A DNA stretch of 64,000 bases from Elusimicrobiota bacterium (GCA_043811535.1 JBDRNC010000008.1:46867-110866); one strand, 5' to 3'. Counted from the first letter of the stretch, positions 1,480-59,011 are shown. Notes: generated from the letters alone by a model not told the origin. Made by a program: numbers and translations.

Positions 1480-3013
1480 ACCCAAATACACGCATGACCA
1501 TGTTCTTTTCCTGCTTTTCACGCTGAACTCCCTGTTTTATATCTGGTTTTACCGGTTCCTGCCACTACAGGATTATCCTGATTGGCTTTTCCAGGGGCTT
1601 TTGTTCTCCAAAGCGCTGAAGGGACAGCTGATGGAAGGATACCGGCTGATTGGTTATCCCGTGGCGAATTCACTGTCAACTGTCTTCATCGGCCTGTTCG
1701 CCCTGCTGTTCAACATTGAGATATCAGGAAAAATACTGCTGTCGGCTTACGCGCTTGTTTTTATCGCCGGCTCTTTTTACATGCTTAATTCACTGGCAGG
1801 AAGGGATAATCATCCGTTCCATTACGCCGCGTTCCTTTTCCTTTTTAACTGCTTCTTCTTCGCCGGCAATATCAATTATGTCATCGGGCTCGGCATACTG
1901 TTTTTCGGGATGGGTTATATCCTCAGAAACGCCCAAACCCCCGAGAAGATTGGCGTCATACCGGTCCTGCTGGCATCCGTACTGCTGTTCTATTCCCACG
2001 CCGTGATATTCATGGTTTATCTGTTCTTCGCGGGGTTATTCGCGCTTTCTACCGCAAGGAAGAATGTTATTCTCAAGGTTCTGGCGGGATTGCTGCCGTC
2101 TATCGCGCTGTTCGGGATTTTTGCGGTTAACCACCTGCGCATGGCGAAGGCCGCCGCGCCGGTCCCTCTTAATCTCAATTTTCTTTCCATATCGGGAATC
2201 GCCGGCAATATCTCGTGCCTTTCCGTTTTCCAATACTTTTACCCTGTCATGGACGCGAATACGAAATACATAAATATTCTCAATATACTTAATCTCGCAT
2301 TTTGTCTAGTGTTTGCAGTGGTATTATTTTACGGTTTTCTGAAAATACTTTTAAAATTCAGGGAACACGCCTCGCTGGCTGTTTCAACCGCCGTTCTTTC
2401 CCTGTTTGCGTTTTTCAATCCCGGTTATTTCGCGGGAATCGTCAGGCCGGGCGAAAGGCTTATTTTTCCGGCGGTATGGATAATACTCGCGTTCCTGGCG
2501 GCGCGGCCCGGATATCTCGGCGCGAAATCCGGAAATATCGTCAGATACGCCGCGATTTTCGCGGTCCTCGCGCAGGCATTCTTCCTTTATTACTTCGGCG
2601 GAATGGCCTCAAATCAAATGGCCGGTATGAATGCCGCGCTTGAGCAAAGCGGCGTTAAGGGCGATTACACGCTTGCCCCGGAAAGCCATTTTAACTATGA
2701 AAATACATTCCGCACGGATTTTAAAAAACCTAAATTCCTCGGAAGGATATCGCCGCTCATACGCCTGCCGTATTACCTTAACATAAACAATTACGCGTAC
2801 ACCTCTGTTTTCCCGACGGGGATATTCATATCCGTTAAAGAATACGCGGCCGCGAATTCAATTACGGACATCCAAAACAATGCCGCGTCGTACAGGGATA
2901 ACGTGATTATCGCAGGGCATCGCGCGGGGAATAATTTTATCGCAGGAAAATTGAGCAAACGATATAAAATTGTCATTGACGAAAAATATTTCATGCTCCT
3001 AAAGAAAAAATAA
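1472..3013 (+). CDS. Polytopic membrane protein, possible GT-C fold glycosyltransferase
   Basis: Many hydrophobic helices, N-terminal LPLQDYPDW loop, glycan-cluster context. Confidence 0.55.
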   Translation: MNKPKYTHDHVLFLLFTLNSLFYIWFYRFLPLQDYPDWLFQGLLFSKALKGQLMEGYRLIGYPVANSLSTVFIGLFALLFNIEISGKILLSAYALVFIAGSFYMLNSLAGRDNHPFHYAAFLFLFNCFFFAGNINYVIGLGILFFGMGYILRNAQTPEKIGVIPVLLASVLLFYSHAVIFMVYLFFAGLFALSTARKNVILKVLAGLLPSIALFGIFAVNHLRMAKAAAPVPLNLNFLSISGIAGNISCLSVFQYFYPVMDANTKYINILNILNLAFCLVFAVVLFYGFLKILLKFREHASLAVSTAVLSLFAFFNPGYFAGIVRPGERLIFPAVWIILAFLAARPGYLGAKSGNIVRYAAIFAVLAQAFFLYYFGGMASNQMAGMNAALEQSGVKGDYTLAPESHFNYENTFRTDFKKPKFLGRISPLIRLPYYLNINNYAYTSVFPTGIFISVKEYAAANSITDIQNNAASYRDNVIIAGHRAGNNFIAGKLSKRYKIVIDEKYFMLLKKK

Positions 3014-4086
3014 TGGAATTCAAGGCCGGTAAAATCCTGGTAGTCAATCTTGGCGGGCTGGGCGACATCGTGATGATGACGCCCATACTGAAAGCCGTAA
3101 AGAAGAAATATCCCGGCTCAAGCATCTCTCTTCTGACTATACCCCGCTCGCTGGAAATATCAAAGAATCTTTCCGGCATCGACAGATTCTACACGCTGCC
3201 GATGACATTTAAGACTCCCTCGCCGTTCTTTTTCCTGAAACTGCTCCGTGCGGCGCTGGATTTGAGAAAAGAACGGTTTGACGCTCTTATTGACTTCAAG
3301 GGGGTACAGACAACACCGGGCAGCTTAAAGATGTTTCTGCTAGTTAAAATAATTAACGCGAAAACGTCTATCGGAAGGAACCTCGGAGGAAAAGGATGGT
3401 TTTTTGACCATAAAATCAAAGAGACCGTCAATAAACCTAACACTGAAGTTGAACATACGCTGAAACTGCTTGAACCTCTGGAAATAACGGAATTTGACAA
3501 GACGATAGAGTATCCCGTCACGCGGCAGGACACGGAATTCATTGATTCCGAGCTTAAGAAATTAAATATTGACAAGGCCGTTCACAAGCTCATCGGCCTC
3601 AATCCAGGCGCGTTCAGGCCTTCGCGCAGGTGGCCTATTGATAGCTGGAAAGATCTGATAAACCTTTTAACCGTGAAATATCCCGACTGCAGGATATTCA
3701 TTACGGGCGAGCAAAGCGAGCTGACTTCCATCGAGAAACTGAAAATCTCGGATAACGTTATCGTAACAAACGGCAAATACTCAATCGGACAGCTGGCGGC
3801 TTTGTTCAGCAAGCTTGATGTGTTTATCACGAATGACACCGGGCCCATGCACCTGGCGGCCGCCGCGGGCGCGAAAATTACCGCTATATTCGGCCCGGGC
3901 GATGTCCACAGGTTCAGCCCTTCAGTCGCGAAAGAAAAATACAGGATAGTAAGAAAAGACATACCCGGCTGCGAAAGGCCCTGCTACAAATTCAGCTGTG
4001 ACAATCCTGTATGCCTGACGGGCATACAGCCCGCTGAAGTGTTCGCGGCAGCGGACAATCTCCTTAAATCAGGCAAACAACAATGA
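3013..4086 (+). CDS. Glycosyltransferase family 9 (heptosyltransferase-like)
   Basis: GGLGDIVM, NPGA..RRWP, TNDTGPMHLAAA motifs. Confidence 0.92.
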   Translation: MEFKAGKILVVNLGGLGDIVMMTPILKAVKKKYPGSSISLLTIPRSLEISKNLSGIDRFYTLPMTFKTPSPFFFLKLLRAALDLRKERFDALIDFKGVQTTPGSLKMFLLVKIINAKTSIGRNLGGKGWFFDHKIKETVNKPNTEVEHTLKLLEPLEITEFDKTIEYPVTRQDTEFIDSELKKLNIDKAVHKLIGLNPGAFRPSRRWPIDSWKDLINLLTVKYPDCRIFITGEQSELTSIEKLKISDNVIVTNGKYSIGQLAALFSKLDVFITNDTGPMHLAAAAGAKITAIFGPGDVHRFSPSVAKEKYRIVRKDIPGCERPCYKFSCDNPVCLTGIQPAEVFAAADNLLKSGKQQ

Positions 4087-5261
4087 ATAAATCGAAGATA
4101 GTCCACATCATCACGCGTCTTGATACCGGCGGCAGCGCTGAAAACACGATAATCACCTGTTCGCTTTCGGACAAATCAAGATTTGAGACCACTCTCGTTT
4201 ACGGCCCGCCCTTGATAAAAACTCTTTCCTGCGAAAGCGTCGTCCTGCCATCGCTTGTCAGGGAGATTTCTCCGGTTAAGGATATAATTACGCTTATCGC
4301 ACTCTTCAGACTGCTTAGGAAGATTAAGCCGGACGTAGTGCACACGCATTCGTCAAAGGGCGGCGTGATAGGCCGCTGGGCCGCCTGGCTGTATAACCAA
4401 ACAACCAGGGTCCAGGGTCCAGGGTCCAGGATGACGAAAATAGTCCACACACCACACGGGCACGTATTTTATGGCTATGAGTTCGGCCTTGTAAAAACAC
4501 TTGTTTTCCGGCTGGTTGAAATATTCTCGGCGTTCATAACAACCAAATTGATAGCGCTGACGCAGGGCGAGATGAAAGAATCCCTTAGCGCGGGCGTCGG
4601 TAAGCCGGGCCAGTGGACCGTCATACACAGCGGAGTGGACATCGATCCCGCGGCTTTAAAGCCCGGGGCTTCCGTGAGGAAACAGCTGGGCCTGCCCGAA
4701 AACGCGCTGGTGGCAGGCACGATAGCAAGGCTTGAACACGTCAAGGGCGTTAAGTTTCTCATAGAAGCGGCCGGACTGTTAAGCAAGCGCGGGATGCGGG
4801 ATGTTTACTGGCTGGTGGTCGGCGGCGGGAAATTAATGGACGTTCTCGCGTCAAGAGCGAACGCGCTCGGCCTCAAGGACAGGATTGTCTTTGCGGGGAT
4901 GAGAGATGATGTCACGGAAATGTTTTCTTCAATGGATATATACGTCCAGCCGTCCCTGAATGAAGGAATGGGAAAAACAATCGTACAGGCCTGCGCGCTC
5001 GGGCTTCCGGTAATCGCTTCAAGAGTGCAGGGAATACCAGATATAATTAAAGACGAGGAAACGGGAATGCTTGTTCCGCCGGCGAATCCCGAAGCGCTCG
5101 CGGAAAAGATTCAAGAATTGATAAATGATCCCGCAAAAAGAAAGAAACTCGGTGAATCCGGCAGGATATTCGTCAACAGGATATCCGACGGATTCCCTTT
5201 TTTCAGCAGCAAGAGAATGGTTCACCTGATGGAAAAACTATATGAAAACCTTCTGCGTTAG
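4083..5261 (+). CDS. Glycosyltransferase family 4
   Basis: HTHSSKGG, HTPHG, PSLNEGMG motifs. Confidence 0.9.
   Translation: MNKSKIVHIITRLDTGGSAENTIITCSLSDKSRFETTLVYGPPLIKTLSCESVVLPSLVREISPVKDIITLIALFRLLRKIKPDVVHTHSSKGGVIGRWAAWLYNQTTRVQGPGSRMTKIVHTPHGHVFYGYEFGLVKTLVFRLVEIFSAFITTKLIALTQGEMKESLSAGVGKPGQWTVIHSGVDIDPAALKPGASVRKQLGLPENALVAGTIARLEHVKGVKFLIEAAGLLSKRGMRDVYWLVVGGGKLMDVLASRANALGLKDRIVFAGMRDDVTEMFSSMDIYVQPSLNEGMGKTIVQACALGLPVIASRVQGIPDIIKDEETGMLVPPANPEALAEKIQELINDPAKRKKLGESGRIFVNRISDGFPFFSSKRMVHLMEKLYENLLR
4405..4430 (+). repeat. (CCAGGGT)x3.7 heptamer tandem repeat inside the GT4 CDS
   Basis: ccagggtccagggtccagggtccagg; the same unit is intergenic at 46031-46047. Confidence 0.85.
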
Positions 5262-11199: not shown

Positions 11200-11952
11200 A
11201 TGAAGAAAACGGCAAAATTAATCGTGATGATGTTGTTCTTTGCGGGCGCCGCGGAAGCGCGTATCAACATGTTTGAGCCCTGGCACCCGGGGCAGGATTC
11301 AAAGATCCGCAGCGAATTCTCTTTCCAGTACATCGGATCCGTTCTTTTCGGGGATAAACTGCAGGAGATCCCGTTCCAGCTGTCTTACACGGCCGGAAAA
11401 AATATCGAGGTCGGGGGAAGATGGGGAGTGAAGAATTTTGACGGCCATTTCGGCATAAGCGACCTCCTGCTCGGCATGAAGTACGGTTTTCTGGAAGAAA
11501 CTATCAACAAGCCCAGTGTGATAGGCGAGATCGGGTTTTCACTGCCTACCGCCGACCAGAACAACGGGCTCGGGACCGGTTCTGTCGGCCTGCTCCTTAA
11601 CTGGGCCATAGAAAAAAGGATTGAAACTCTGACGGGCTACTTCGGGTTGGGCATGGCGATGTACTCCGAGAACAGCGACAAGGTTCAGTACGGGAATATT
11701 TTTTCATATCACGTAGGCGCAGGCTCACAGTACAATAAACTCTTGCGGATACACATGGAATTCAAGGGTTTCAACCACGGAGCCGCAAAAACCGCGGGCA
11801 TTCAGACTTTGGACAACTACCAGGAAATGTACCTCGCGCCCGGCGCGAATTACAACTGGACAAAACAGAACATGATACTTTCCGGCTCGCTCCTGTTCGG
11901 TCTCACGCCGGAATCGCACAAATTAGGATTTATTATAAGCAGCAACTTTTAG
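11200..11952 (+). CDS. Outer-membrane beta-barrel protein (putative transporter)
   Basis: Signal peptide, amphipathic strands, LPTAD..GLGTG, C-terminal Phe. Confidence 0.65.
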   Translation: MKKTAKLIVMMLFFAGAAEARINMFEPWHPGQDSKIRSEFSFQYIGSVLFGDKLQEIPFQLSYTAGKNIEVGGRWGVKNFDGHFGISDLLLGMKYGFLEETINKPSVIGEIGFSLPTADQNNGLGTGSVGLLLNWAIEKRIETLTGYFGLGMAMYSENSDKVQYGNIFSYHVGAGSQYNKLLRIHMEFKGFNHGAAKTAGIQTLDNYQEMYLAPGANYNWTKQNMILSGSLLFGLTPESHKLGFIISSNF

Positions 11953-11958
11953 TACAAC

Positions 11959-12058
11959 GATTACACCGATTTGAAACGAAGATTACACCGATTATCAACA
12001 ACGATTTCACAGATTATATAAAGACGATTACACCGATAAACAACGAGATTACACTGAT
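11959..12058 (+). repeat. Left arm of GxxExxY element: 5 x GATT[A/T]CACNGAT
   Basis: Units at 11959, 11981, 12003, 12026, 12047. Confidence 0.92.
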
Positions 12059-12073
12059 TAACGACTGGGGGAT

Positions 12074-12448
12074 ATGCAGATGAAGGAAACTGATCTTTTA
12101 ACTGCAAAGATAATTGGCTGTTGTTTTAAAGTTCACAGGGAGATTGGCCCGGGTTTCAATGAAAAAATATATCAAAATGCCCTGACAACTCTTTTCAATA
12201 AAGAGAACATTAATTACATAACGGAAAAGGAATACGAAGTAAAGTACTTAAATGCTAGGATAGGAATATTTCGCGCAGATATAGTAGTTGAAGAGAAGGT
12301 AATAGTAGAGATAAAGGCGGTAACAGGAGATATCACCAAGTTATTTGAAAAACAAGTTATTTCGTATTTAAAGTCGTCGGGGCATAAAATTGGGTTGTTG
12401 ATAAATTTTGGCAATGAAAGCTGTCAGATAAAAAGACTTGTTAGTTAA
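12074..12448 (+). CDS. GxxExxY protein (PD-(D/E)XK nuclease fold)
   Basis: GPGFNEKIY, RADIVVEEKVIVEIK, GLLINFG; visibly AT-richer than its flanks. Confidence 0.93.
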   Translation: MQMKETDLLTAKIIGCCFKVHREIGPGFNEKIYQNALTTLFNKENINYITEKEYEVKYLNARIGIFRADIVVEEKVIVEIKAVTGDITKLFEKQVISYLKSSGHKIGLLINFGNESCQIKRLVS

Positions 12449-12464
12449 TCCGTGTTTTGGTTGT

Positions 12465-12566
12465 ATCTGTGTAATCTGTCGTTAGTAATCTGCGCAATCG
12501 TCGTTCTTGTAATCTGTGTAATCGTAGTTTTTATCTGTGTAATCTTCGTTAGAAATCGGTGTAATC
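12465..12566 (-). repeat. Right arm of GxxExxY element: 5 x ATCNGYGYAATC (inverted)
   Basis: Units at 12465, 12488, 12512, 12533, 12555 are reverse complements of the left-arm unit. Confidence 0.92.
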
Positions 12567-12584
12567 TTTGTTCTAGGAGAGATA

Positions 12585-28413: not shown

Positions 28414-29247
28414 ATGGTAAAGAAAATTGATTCAAAAGAACTTGGGCTTGTGATGGCCATAATCCTGGGCAAATACCTGTTCAAGACAGATGACCTCCAC
28501 TACGGCTACTGGACTCCTGACCTGAAGCTTGACGTGTCAAATATAGTCAAGGCGCAGGACAACCACTCAAACCTCATAATTTCCAATATTCCCGGAGGCG
28601 TTCAGACCATTCTTGACGTGGGCTGCGGCGCGGGCGCGCTGGCGAAAAGACTGCTCGCGAAAGGATGGCAGGTTGACTGCGTCTCCCCGAGCATGCTTCT
28701 TACGCGGGAAGCAAAAAAGCTTACCGGAGGAAAATGCGGGATGTTCGAATCCGGGTACGAGTCCGTGGAGACCGACAAGAAATACGACCTTGTCATTTTC
28801 AGCGAGAGCTACCAGTATATAAACCTGAAGAAATCCCTGGAACAGACCGCCAGGTTCCTGAAACCCGGCGGCCACATGCTTATATGCGATTTCTTTGAAA
28901 CGGACGCCGAGGGGGAAAGCGCTCTCGGAGGCGGACACAAGCTGGGCGAATTCTACGAAACCGTCAAGAAATACCCTTTCAAGAACGTAAAGGACATAGA
29001 TATCACCAAACAGACATCCCCGAACCTCGTGCTTATCGACGATATGCTCAAGCAGATGGGCCTTCCTATATGGGAACTCATCCACGAGATGCTCAAAACC
29101 AACCACCCGGCGGTATACAAGCTGCTGACATGGAAGTACAGGAAAAAGATAGACAAGATAAACCAGAAGTATTTCAGCGGCGCCAGGAACGGGGAAAACT
29201 TTGAGAAATTCAAGTCCTACCGCCTGATGCTGTATCAAAAACAGTAA
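28414..29247 (+). CDS. Class I SAM-dependent methyltransferase
   Basis: LHYGYW, LDVGCGAG, LKPGG. Confidence 0.88.
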   Translation: MVKKIDSKELGLVMAIILGKYLFKTDDLHYGYWTPDLKLDVSNIVKAQDNHSNLIISNIPGGVQTILDVGCGAGALAKRLLAKGWQVDCVSPSMLLTREAKKLTGGKCGMFESGYESVETDKKYDLVIFSESYQYINLKKSLEQTARFLKPGGHMLICDFFETDAEGESALGGGHKLGEFYETVKKYPFKNVKDIDITKQTSPNLVLIDDMLKQMGLPIWELIHEMLKTNHPAVYKLLTWKYRKKIDKINQKYFSGARNGENFEKFKSYRLMLYQKQ

Positions 29248-29275
29248 TTAGCGATTAGCAATTAGCTATTAGTAT

Positions 29276-29304
29276 TTGACAACATTGCCGTTATTTGGTA
29301 TATA
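29276..29304 (+). promoter_or_regulatory. Sigma70-type promoter of the cob/btu operon
   Basis: TTGACA-17-TATATA with upstream TG. Confidence 0.65.
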
Positions 29305-29330
29305 TTGTTCTGTTATCTTTGACATATTAA

Positions 29331-29497
29331 TAGGTTGAGGAAGTTCCGTGACGCTCGAAAGGGCTATTCGGACACTGCCCCGCAACGGTAAATTAACGAC
29401 AGCAAGTAGCAATTAGCTATTAGCAATTAGAGTTCTTAACTACTCGCCAATTGCAAATCGCAAATTGCTGTCGTTAAGAGTCCGGTCGACAGCCTGT
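29331..29497 (+). promoter_or_regulatory. Cobalamin riboswitch with inserted hairpins
   Basis: GGAAG..CCGTG..TTCGG..ACTGCCCCGCAACGGTAA ... GAGTCCGG..GAC; upstream of cobO. Confidence 0.85.
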
Positions 29498-29586
29498 TTT
29501 CAAGCTTTAACCTTCGCGGGAAGGAGTTTTCGTATTTTGCCTCACTTTCCATCCCGGGAAGTGGGGTATATTTATTTTCTGACAAT

Positions 29587-29669
29587 CATCCTCCCTCTTG
29601 ACGGGGGAGGAGCGAGGTGGGGGTGCCCCCCATCCCAGCCTTCCCCCGTAGAAGGGGGAAGGTGAAGGA
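29587..29669. repeat. CATCCTCCC/CCCCATCCCAGCCTTCCCC double-hairpin element
   Basis: Shorter relative of the 8992 and 15791 elements; half copy at 54497-54541. Confidence 0.75.
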
Positions 29670-29684
29670 ACAAAGGATATATTT

Positions 29685-30200
29685 ATGCTAATTATCAACA
29701 CCGGAAACGGCAAGGGAAAGACAACGGCGGCCATTGGCCAGATGGTAAGGGCTCTTGGGCAGGGTCAGAAGGTCTGTTTTGTCCAGATTTTCAAGGGCGC
29801 GGTATTCTATGGGGAGCAGAAGGTTCTTCAAAACCTGAAAAACCTGGATTTTTACTCTTTCGCGCCCAAACATCCGTACTGTTTCAGGGGCATCAGCCTC
29901 CGGCCGATCAGGCTGGAATGCCAAAAGGCAGTCAAACTCCTGAAAAAAATAGCAAGAGGCCGGAAGAAGTATGATCTCATCGTTCTTGACGAGTTTAACA
30001 TAGGCGTAAGGGACGGCTTTATCGGACTTAAAGCATTACTTGATGTATTAAATAAACTGATTGAAAATACAAATGTAATTATCACAGGGCGCGGAGCACA
30101 CAAAGAGCTCCTGAAGCGGGCCGACTTAATCACTGAAATGAAAGAGGTCCGGCACCCGTACAAGAAAGGCATCAAGGCTTCCAAAGGCCTAGAATTCTAG
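29685..30200 (+). CDS. cobO: Cob(I)yrinic acid a,c-diamide adenosyltransferase
   Basis: TGNGKGKTTAAIG, LDE, ITGR, HPY motifs. Confidence 0.92.
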   Translation: MLIINTGNGKGKTTAAIGQMVRALGQGQKVCFVQIFKGAVFYGEQKVLQNLKNLDFYSFAPKHPYCFRGISLRPIRLECQKAVKLLKKIARGRKKYDLIVLDEFNIGVRDGFIGLKALLDVLNKLIENTNVIITGRGAHKELLKRADLITEMKEVRHPYKKGIKASKGLEF

Positions 30201-35540: not shown

Positions 35541-36356
35541 ATGTTAGAACTTAATGGCGTATCAGCGGGTTATGGCGGACGAACAGTGATATCGGACATA
35601 TCGTTCCGCGCGGAAAAGGGCTCATTTCACGGGATAATAGGGCCGAACGGCGCCGGCAAGACAACGCTTTTCAGGACTATAAGCAGGATAATAGGCCTGT
35701 CCGCAGGCAAGATGTTCTTTGGCGGCAAAGACATCGGCAGGATCCCGAGGCATATTCTCGCGAAAGACGTCGCCACGATGCTCCCGCTTTACGACATTCC
35801 TTTCACGTTTTCCGTAGAGGAATTCGTCATGCTGGGCAGGTTCCCTCACCAGAACAGGTTTGAAAAACCGAAAAAAGAAGATTATGAATCGGTAAGGCAG
35901 AACCTTGAATTCACGGACATAATCAATCTGAAAGACAGGAAACTGAACGAGCTGTCCGGCGGCGAAAGGCAGAGGGCCATTCTCGCTCAGGCGCTCGCGC
36001 AGAAACCGAAACTCCTTCTGCTGGACGAGCCGACGGCATATCTTGACATCGGCCACCAGATAGCGATACTTGACCTGATAAAGAAACTCAACAGGGACGA
36101 CGGGCTTACCGTTATTACAATTCTTCACGACCTGAACCTCGCGAGCGAATACTGCGACAAGCTGTTGATGATGCGCGGCGGCGGAATATTCAGGTCCGGA
36201 ACTCCGGAAGAAGTGCTTACTTACGAAAATATAGAACAGGTGTATAAAACCGTTGTTGTGGTAAAGGAAAATCCGATTTCGCGCAGGCCTTATGTGATAT
36301 CGGTTTCGGGCGAAAGCCTGAAAAGGAAAACTGCCGGCACAGGGAATCCCGTGTAA
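35541..36356 (+). CDS. btuD: Cobalamin ABC transporter ATPase
   Basis: GPNGAGKT, LSGGERQR, DEPT, HDLNLA. Confidence 0.88.
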   Translation: MLELNGVSAGYGGRTVISDISFRAEKGSFHGIIGPNGAGKTTLFRTISRIIGLSAGKMFFGGKDIGRIPRHILAKDVATMLPLYDIPFTFSVEEFVMLGRFPHQNRFEKPKKEDYESVRQNLEFTDIINLKDRKLNELSGGERQRAILAQALAQKPKLLLLDEPTAYLDIGHQIAILDLIKKLNRDDGLTVITILHDLNLASEYCDKLLMMRGGGIFRSGTPEEVLTYENIEQVYKTVVVVKENPISRRPYVISVSGESLKRKTAGTGNPV

Positions 36357-36485
36357 ATCGGGAACAGCCCCGCTACTGTAATCCAGCCCTTACGGGTGTA
36401 TGGCAACAACCACTGCTATTTTTACGGCAGGAAGGTGCCATTCAGGAGAAGATTCTCCTGGGAGAGTCAGGAAACCCGTCGGCAA
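36331..36485 (+). promoter_or_regulatory. Cobalamin riboswitch overlapping the btuD 3' end
   Basis: AGGGAATCCCGTGTAAATCGGGAACAGCCCCGCTACTGTAA ... CCACTG ... GGAAGG ... GAGTCAGGAAACC; P1 tgccggc/gtcggca. Confidence 0.92.
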
Positions 36486-36616
36486 GAACACACTCGAGGG
36501 AGGACATATGACTACAGCAATTAGCACTTAGCCCGCCGCGGCGGGGCAATTAGTTCGGAGAAAACGGCAAAGGCATAGACAGAACGGCAACACAAAAACA
36601 AGAAAAAGGAAGAACA

Positions 36617-58825: not shown

Positions 58826-58844
58826 GATAGTGGCAAAAGTTACA

Positions 58845-59002
58845 CCGATAAAGGCAAACCCGGAGTAATCCGGGGACGCAAAGCCGAGGAACCTAGTAAC
58901 GACAGTATGAAATAGGAAGACAGAAGAAGGAAGAAAAGGCTGTTAACTTCCATCTTCAAACTTCAATCTTCCGTCTGTCGTTAAGGTTGGCTGGGGTGCC
59001 GG
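58845..59002 (+). promoter_or_regulatory. Cyclic di-GMP-I (GEMM-I) riboswitch with 87-nt insert in P3
   Basis: GGCAAACCCGGAGTAATCCGGGGACGCAAAGCC...AACCT//AGGTTGGC...TGCC. Confidence 0.85.
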
Positions 59003-59011
59003 AACAAAAAT

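Follow-up and report, generated by a model that had tools for sequence, protein, structure and literature searches.

Upstream of the cobO gene of an Endomicrobiales (Elusimicrobiota) genome, an 85-nt hairpin made of tandem heptamers lies inside a predicted cobalamin riboswitch. The same closing helix, around heptamers of another type, lies inside a c-di-GMP riboswitch of the same 64,000-nt stretch of DNA (the window). What is this hairpin, and is it a working part of the two RNAs or a guest in them? A preliminary description had seen in it a shared module resembling the intervening sequences (IVSs) of rRNA, with a fixed closing helix and interchangeable periodic arms. We analysed the window, its source genome (G000; assembly of 2.65 Mb, 92.8% complete) and the genomes of relatives (G001, G003 and so on). 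C-numbers stand for contigs and L-numbers (L031, L100, L103, L124) for relatives' loci, L100 being a metagenome contig. The features of the window are the following.

11950-12580, plus strand: GxxExxY (PF13366) gene in long inverted arms of the gattaca type; Pfam match at 12098-12436
29246-29272 (region to 29281), plus strand: unpaired four-unit array TAATTAG CGATTAG CAATTAG CTATTAG, from TRF and sequence
29336-29491, plus strand: predicted aptamer core of an AdoCbl-class (RF01482-like) cobalamin riboswitch, GGAAG box to GGTCGAC, from the custom model R1 and the gene context
29353-29364, plus strand: small optional hairpin gctcgaaagggc in the loop of the first aptamer hairpin, from comparison of relatives
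29393-29477, plus strand: 85-nt heptamer hairpin module, from sequence, TRF and fold
29511-29524, plus strand: CCTTCGCGGGAAGG hairpin, counterpart of the last (kissing-loop) hairpin of RF01482, from relatives and the L031 alignment
29538-29578, plus strand: terminator-like hairpin with a T-rich tail (putative expression platform), a 13-pair stem followed by TATTTATTTT
29685-30200, plus strand: cobO/btuR (corrinoid adenosyltransferase), first gene of the operon, Pfam PF02572 (1.7e-47)
58843-59003, plus strand: c-di-GMP-I (GEMM) aptamer, Rfam RF01051 at 39.4 bits (gathering score 35)
58896-58984, plus strand: 89-nt heptamer module capping the second hairpin of the aptamer, from sequence and fold

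As the preliminary description had claimed, a perfect 13-bp inverted repeat (TTAACGACAGCAA/TTGCTGTCGTTAA, at 29393-29405 and 29465-29477) encloses heptamer arms, both in the sequence and by TRF. It is flanked by GCAACGGTAA on one side and GAGTCCGG on the other. The 5' arm consists of a 9-nt leader, TAACGACAG (29394-29402), and of the heptamers CAAGTAG CAATTAG CTATTAG CAATTAG; after the loop, the 3' arm has four mirrored heptamers and then the inverted leader CTGTCGTTA (29468-29476). Period-7 arrays were called by TRF on both arms (AGCAATT at 29401-29430, TCGCAAA at 29444-29465). The predicted fold of the 85-mer reaches -29.6 kcal/mol, compared with -13.1 ± 2.7 for shuffled sequences (z = -6.2; none of 200 shuffles as good). 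The opposite strand of the arms would fold at -37.4 kcal/mol against the -29.6 of the sense strand. The 9-mer TAACGACAG occurs five times in the window, where 0.29 copies are expected, and none of 100 shuffles reached this number. The fifth copy, CTGTCGTTA at 12476-12484, lies as had been described in the arms around the GxxExxY gene, which have a repeat period of about 21 nt and also hold TAACGAC at 12059. The second small hairpin that had been pointed out, at 29353-29364, is also present; we consider it to be ordinary variation, because relatives have hairpins of other sequence or length at this place, or none.

Two further repeats of the window are worth recording. The unpaired array at 29246, of the CAATTAG type, follows the stop codon of a methyltransferase gene and stands directly before a TTGACA, for which a consensus scan found no full promoter at 29246-29281. 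A GC-rich repeat able to form a hairpin, about 85 nt long (..cctccctcttgacgggggagg..), occupies 29582-29669, behind the riboswitch terminator and before cobO; copies of it at 79-92% are found on contigs C3, C7, C27, C28 and C37.

The identification of the cobO leader as a cobalamin riboswitch was supported by orthologues, by a custom covariance model and by the gene context, although Rfam remained below its gathering score: RF00174 gave 17.3 bits at 29315-29511 (gathering score 31.5), and RF01482 gave no match at this locus. We attribute this failure to the 84-nt insertion. The custom model, R1, was constructed from 11 relatives' loci, all short-stem; it matches 29336-29491 at 54.6 bits (E = 4.2e-11), with the 84-nt insertion where the model has 14 positions. 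The core is intact, with the motifs GGAAG..CCG, CUGCCCCGCAACGGUAA and AGUCCGGUC all present, and 26 bases of the core (query 87-112, window 29366-29391) are found again before cobO in 40 relatives belonging to this order. RF01482 matches the relatives' cobO loci at E ≤ 0.01 in 12 cases out of 20, six of them above its gathering score of 50, and it was from this set that the 11 loci of R1 were taken. In the RF01482 alignment of L031 the insertion place is the stem tip between ..CCACUGUAA and AAGUCAGG.., that is, P6. The last hairpin, CCTTCGCGGGAAGG, is kept in relatives as CTTTCGCGGGAAAG or CTTTCGAGGGAAAG, and a hairpin with a T-run is found in them at the place that matches 29538-29578. The operon downstream, of the type cobO-cobU-cobT-cobS-btuF-like, is one of B12 salvage. 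From the R1 insertion at P6, the orthologues, the last hairpin, the terminator-like hairpin and the gene context, we predict that the cobO leader is an AdoCbl-class riboswitch with an expanded P6 tip. A second, classical cobalamin riboswitch of the window (36285-36497, 69.5 bits), located before a TonB receptor gene, is without a heptamer module.

The corresponding insert in the c-di-GMP riboswitch was also found where it had been announced, as an 89-nt hairpin with the same closing TAACGACAG/CTGTCGTTA pair (58897-58905 and 58975-58983) and another, GGAAG-type heptamer. The Rfam alignment of this GEMM aptamer ends inside the insert, at 58947, and comparison with a paralogue and with relatives places the true 3' strand, AGGTTGGCTGGGGTGCCGG, beyond it. 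The paralogue, at C28:61807-61953, matches RF01051 at 49.7 bits, and the right arm of the window's module is shared with C28:61827-61908. G000 has six GEMM-I aptamers; in these two, the second hairpin is tipped by the module, with a common right arm. Including one aptamer each from G004 and G005, four GEMM aptamers have heptamer hairpins at this tip, a count that does not measure frequency, as the relatives' GEMM loci were picked by length (above about 95 nt). In L092-L096 (from G005, G016, G003, G012 and G006), several GEMM-I aptamers are lengthened in the second hairpin by about 40-45 nt of different, non-heptamer sequence, conserved from one genome to the next (..gggtacggg.cctaa..), and several GEMMs stand in tandem.

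We searched G000 for other members of the family. TRF called 785 period-7 arrays; once period-14 and period-21 arrays had been merged in, the count was 735, with 133 mirrored pairs among them. Further hairpins and arrays led by motifs of the TAACGACAG type, which a genome scan was expected to reveal, do exist both in G000 and across the phylum. In G000, sites within one mismatch of TAACGACAG directly lead an array in 55 of 515 cases, compared with 0-8 of 262-754 for eight scrambled motifs; for exact sites the figure is 9 of 26. Exact TAACGACAG is not in excess genome-wide (26 sites, roughly 20 being expected from the genome length), so that the signal is its position next to arrays. The leader motif of the arrays is TAACGRCAG, with TAACGGCAG, TAACGACAG, TAACAACAG and TAAAGACAG as common forms. 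Array units have the form N5-R-G, and exactly four of them make up 39 of the 55 leader-led arrays; counted together with the ACGRCAG of the leader, there are five N5RG units per arm. The arms pair as helices of 4-6 bp with regular internal loops. A trailer motif, TAAMRAC, was found directly behind the array in only 9 of the 55 cases, and TAACGAC and TAAAGAC are enriched on either side of arrays. The 'fixed closing helix' of the preliminary description does pair, but it is formed by a leader present in two inverted copies, and the same leader stands at the head of unpaired arrays too.

Such arrays are ubiquitous in G000 and vary quickly, and the heptamer stems of P6b in the Nostoc trnL intron change by processes other than point mutation (PMC4476775). 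The hairpins could be native stems that grew in place, through slippage of heptamers and template switches that correct palindromes, without any mobile element, their shared closure reflecting a mutational or structural bias. This would agree with the finding of neither a target-site duplication nor a transposase. Nevertheless, we hold this explanation to be very improbable. One 9-nt leader heads many heptamer types, in unrelated hosts and phylum-wide; arms mostly have a fixed length of four units; within one heptamer type, arrays at separate loci show an identical order of variant units (for example TTCACAG TTGACGG TTGACAG); paralogues of the complete cobO hairpin lie at C28:123875-123948 (82% identity) and C35:108987-109072 (78%); and a single 23S gene, described below, contains six hairpins of like design. 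The shared order of variant units, the whole-hairpin paralogues, the four-unit length and the position of the leader all indicate that the arrays are copies and not products of local slippage.

The copies are not mainly a matter of structured RNAs. The module is present in many intergenic sites, in both orientations, and most family copies lie outside structured RNAs; to this extent the proposal of a shared IVS-like module with interchangeable arms, otherwise supported, has to be qualified. Leader pairs at one mismatch or less comprise 13 convergent, 4 divergent and 17 direct ones, three of the 13 being in riboswitch aptamers. With only 13 convergent against 4 divergent pairs, cleanly closed elements must be few, and at two mismatches or less there is no convergent excess (822 convergent, 824 divergent). 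No target-site duplication is evident in G000; the flanks of clean copies share a possible TA/TTAA, which is part of the leader and ambiguous. No transposase tied to the family was found in this genome. We infer movement rather than see it, since no empty/filled polymorphism was found at short evolutionary distance.

In the relatives, we compared the P6 tip of the cobO riboswitches. Seven sequences, from six families, have a module of 81-99 nt at this site (G000 87, G001 92, L100 91, G003 81, G004 94, G012 99 and G005 90 nt), and in each of them two arms of four heptamers flank a loop, with a leader at the outer 5' end and its inverted form at the 3' end. The 5' leaders read TTAACGACAG in G001 and L100, TTAACGGCAG in G012, TTAAAGACAG in G004 and TTAACTGCCG in G005, and in G003 the leader is reduced to ..CAG. 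A TTAAC-type 5' leader is thus found in four of the six relatives' modules, the two others having TTAAAGACAG and CAG only. The heptamers differ from genome to genome, save that G001 and L100 have the same arms with point changes. The two leaders of one hairpin are sometimes non-complementary (G012, G001); as each side keeps the motif and not the pair, the leader appears to be the terminus of an element rather than a purely structural helix. Twelve other relatives have 15-53 nt at the P6 tip: 53 nt with a TTAACG closure in G008, and 15-40 nt without such a motif at the eleven other loci. Orthologous stems of equal length and unrelated sequence, which would have spoken against an insert, were therefore not what we saw; the stems are either of 15-40 nt or like-design modules of 81-99 nt.

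Recurrence at one site asks for a history. The boundaries GGTAA-W-TTAAC ... GTTAA-G-AGTCC are common to G000, G001, G012, G005 and L100, arms are conserved within family f2 (G001 and L100), and arms match heptamer types common in the host genome, such as the TAGGTAG/TAGATAG arrays located elsewhere in G001. These observations would be accounted for by one ancient insertion at the P6 tip, in an ancestor of the non-Endomicrobiaceae families, followed by vertical inheritance, conversion of the arms from resident copies and several losses; wholesale replacement of P6b in Nostoc (PMC4476775) offers a precedent for the conversion. The distribution is however patchy within families, with 53 nt in G008 and 24 nt in G014 of f9, and a long stem in G001 and a short one in G010 of f2. 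We regard a single ancient insertion as quite possible, if at somewhat less than even odds; otherwise, independent insertions would have hit this site repeatedly.

Across the phylum, 24 of 121 Elusimicrobiota genomes contain a leader followed by three N5RG units (16 hits in G000, 21 in G162 and 10 in G001), the reversed-pattern control giving 6 hits overall in the same 121 genomes. The strict pair TAACRRCAG..CTGYYGTTA matched in 21 of 104 genomes of the order and its reversed controls in 10; many of these matches are chance-like, and we used them only as examples (G081-G083, G103, G001).

Some versions of the element seem to carry genes. G000 has six genes for PF05635, the four-helix bundle protein of 23S rRNA IVSs, and two for PF13366 (GxxExxY). 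The PF05635 gene at C12:54833 has AATTAGC-type heptamer flanks, as in the cobO hairpin, a type with 107 arrays within one mismatch; the one at C39:156323 has AAGATGG/AAGACGG-type flanks, as in the GEMM hairpins, with 122 arrays. In a scripted test, an inverted repeat of period 7 brackets 17 of 35 PF05635 genes from G000 and five relatives and 0 of 200 random gaps; four PF05635 matches below the cut-off or without a usable locus were left out. A leader lies within 170 nt, in the right orientation, at 4 of 29 PF05635 genes. The hairpin copy before cobO itself is without an ORF. The second GxxExxY gene of G000 is located at C30:27093-27437.

One gene-bearing copy seems to lie in an aptamer as well. 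The locus is the following.

L124 (G012:C3), 1378-1935: B12-type leader before a TonB receptor gene (btuB), from the half-match of R1 and the core motifs

The PF05635 gene of this locus (L124:1486-1819) is placed between AGACNAG arms at the P6 tip of the leader. The 5' core reads ..GCCCAGCAACGGTAA and the 3' core GAATCCGGACGA, and the last hairpin contains the ribosome-binding site. A P1 helix of CTGAATAAATAA (1378-1389) with TTATTTAATTCAG (1892-1904) would span a cassette of roughly 480 nt. R1 matches the 5' half at 24.4 bits, and Rfam (AdoCbl-II at 15.7 bits) makes no call. The homologous receptor gene stands behind a cobalamin riboswitch in five of the nine relatives' loci scanned. Given the 5'-half match of R1, the P1 helix spanning the cassette, the 3' core motif and the context of a TonB receptor, the leader appears to be a B12 riboswitch with a PF05635 gene inside its aptamer, a prediction made from sequence.

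Could the module be a working part of the leaders that contain it? It might serve as the platform of a heptamer-reading protein, for example a PF05635 paralogue, or as a deliberate RNase III site, coupling B12 and c-di-GMP control to the cleavage or stability of the mRNA. One site and one design of 81-99 nt in seven sequences of six families would suit such a role, as would a leader conserved in sequence beyond pairing, the arms of L100 and G001 alike but for point changes, and heptamer types that match those around PF05635 genes of the same genome. The IVS of Coxiella, moreover, is cut by RNase III at its first heptamer repeat (PMC4990558). On the other hand, the twelve relatives with a short hairpin still match the riboswitch model, arms differ among genomes, and like modules are found at many intergenic sites in either orientation; the sense strand is the more stable one in only 5 of 11 riboswitch hairpins, so that there is no consistent bias at the RNA level. 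We therefore judge a working part to be improbable.

We also searched for 23S genes in five chosen array-rich genomes, and obtained matches in three. G000 itself lacks an assembled 23S gene, and neither its RNase P nor its tmRNA contains an insert; the scan of structured RNAs that had been suggested gave a positive result for rRNA, in another genome, G111.

L103 (G111:C24), 1501-5119, minus strand: 23S rRNA gene of G111, aligned to that of G004

This gene has 3619 nt, compared with 2937 nt in G004, and contains six heptamer hairpins where G004 has short loops. Four of the six end in motifs of the TAAMGRCAG / CTGYCKTTA type, and the gene accounts for three of the six leader-plus-array hits of the G111 genome. 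One hairpin lies just before GGGTAGGGGAGCGTTC, which we take to be the 3' side of helix 45. None of the three hairpins inspected contains an ORF of 60 aa or more. The loops of two of the hairpins share AAAGTCAATGACTTT. Among the tRNA genes of G000, 13 of 38 have an array within 40 nt (raw count), and the leader-led arrays at C15:12356 and C31:25493 begin 2-3 nt past the 3' ends of tRNA-Thr and tRNA-Gly.

We consider it probable (about 60%) that the cobO hairpin belongs, as a copy without a gene, to an IVS-type family of palindromic repeats that are passengers at the tips of tolerant stems. In this scheme, each arm is a TAACGRCAG leader with four N5-R-G units, the arms being inverted; the two leaders pair into the 'fixed closing helix', and the heptamer type defines sub-families, hence the 'interchangeable arms'. 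The family is dispersed in this genome and its phylum, with gene-bearing versions carrying PF05635 or PF13366, protein families known from the intervening sequences of 23S rRNA. Within structured RNAs, copies would persist only at the tips of variable stems, where an added helix leaves the fold undisturbed: in G000, the P6 tip of the AdoCbl-class riboswitch and the second-hairpin tip of the two GEMM-I riboswitches are the presumed hosts. The longer P6 would leave the working of the riboswitch unchanged. Where a host helix has to stay closed, selection probably maintains the complementarity of the two leaders in RNAs, which would explain why the cleanest closures are those of riboswitch copies. 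As in rRNA IVSs, the stem may be cleaved by RNase III, for which G000 has a gene; a continuous RNase III substrate is nevertheless doubtful, as the inner arms are short helices with internal loops and are weaker on the sense strand. As the module recurs at one riboswitch site in five other families, it could alternatively be of use at this place.

A bolder view starts from density: a single 23S gene with six copies, and G000 with three occupied riboswitch stems, can be cited for targeting rather than mere survival. IVSs, orphan heptamer hairpins and PF05635/GxxExxY cassettes would then form a single class of element that shares its termini (TAACGRCAG in Elusimicrobiota) and homes to the hairpin tips of structured RNAs. 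Its targets would be 23S rRNA, riboswitch aptamers and perhaps tRNA spacers, and a riboswitch could act in a split or processed state, even with a gene inside the aptamer as in the btuB leader of G012. The outer flanks of G000 copies outside RNAs do not pair, and a general rule of hairpin-loop targeting was not borne out. We find such a homing class rather unlikely.

How does the passenger family compare with known systems? The closest is the 23S rRNA IVS (Coxiella burnetii helix 45, Leptospira, Salmonella), with or without an S23p/PF05635 ORF. In both cases, a long stem of terminal inverted repeats replaces the tip of a variable helix, here with a 13-bp closing helix and imperfect arms; the same design is present in the 23S gene of G111, and PF05635 and GxxExxY genes lie within such arms. 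The hosts described here, unlike those of 23S IVSs, are riboswitch aptamers and not rRNA, and the cobO copy has no ORF. The IVS of C. burnetii has heptameric repeats at its 5' end, at the first of which RNase III cuts, and the usual 23S sites are helices 9, 25 and 45 (PMC4990558). A TAACGRCAG leader with four-heptamer arms does not figure in the available part of that account. In the tRNA-Leu(UAA) group I intron of Nostoc, P6b is always built on one of two heptamer motifs, and one class has wholly replaced the other several times (PMC4476775). This resembles our case in its tandem 7-nt units in the stem-loop of a structured RNA and in the interchange of heptamer arms at one site; it differs in concerning Cyanobacteria and a group I intron, and the available part of the same paper reports neither a shared leader or closing motif nor a link to IVS proteins.

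Other parallels are looser. Cyanobacteria have STRR heptamer repeats that recall the arrays of G000. The TAACTGA direct repeats of Beggiatoaceae, Cyanobacteria and Bacteroidetes are abundant intergenic tandem heptamers, of patchy spread and unknown function (PMC4679880). In contrast to STRR and TAACTGA repeats, which are mostly direct arrays of a single heptamer, the elements studied here form mirrored hairpins of many types with a shared leader. MITEs and palindromic repeats of bacteria (Nezha, Correia, REP/BIME, ERIC) are small, non-coding, multi-copy and hairpin-forming, with terminal inverted repeats. The present family is like them in its terminal inverted repeats and many copies (leader pairs, 55 leader-led arrays, paralogous hairpins). 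It is unlike them in having no clear target-site duplication, no cognate transposase, a periodic interior, and relatives that carry PF05635 or GxxExxY. A limited search of the literature found no account of heptamer or IVS-type hairpins within riboswitches. New here are the occurrence in riboswitch hosts, the common leader with arms of four units, the return of the module across families at a single aptamer site, and the apparent gene-bearing copy in an aptamer.

Since inserts of this kind would, on our reading, hide real riboswitches from Rfam (17.3 bits in the present case), riboswitches are likely to be undercounted in the annotation of repeat-rich phyla. To our knowledge, rRNA IVSs and the abundant heptamer repeats of some bacteria have gone without explanation for more than 30 years. 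If our reading is correct, a module found in aptamers, in a 23S gene and around IVS-protein genes would tie three puzzles together. The protein gene within the aptamer of G012 would be an unusual test case for riboswitch folding, and the B12 and c-di-GMP riboswitches would provide small, assayable hosts in which questions of cutting, binding and mobility may be addressed.
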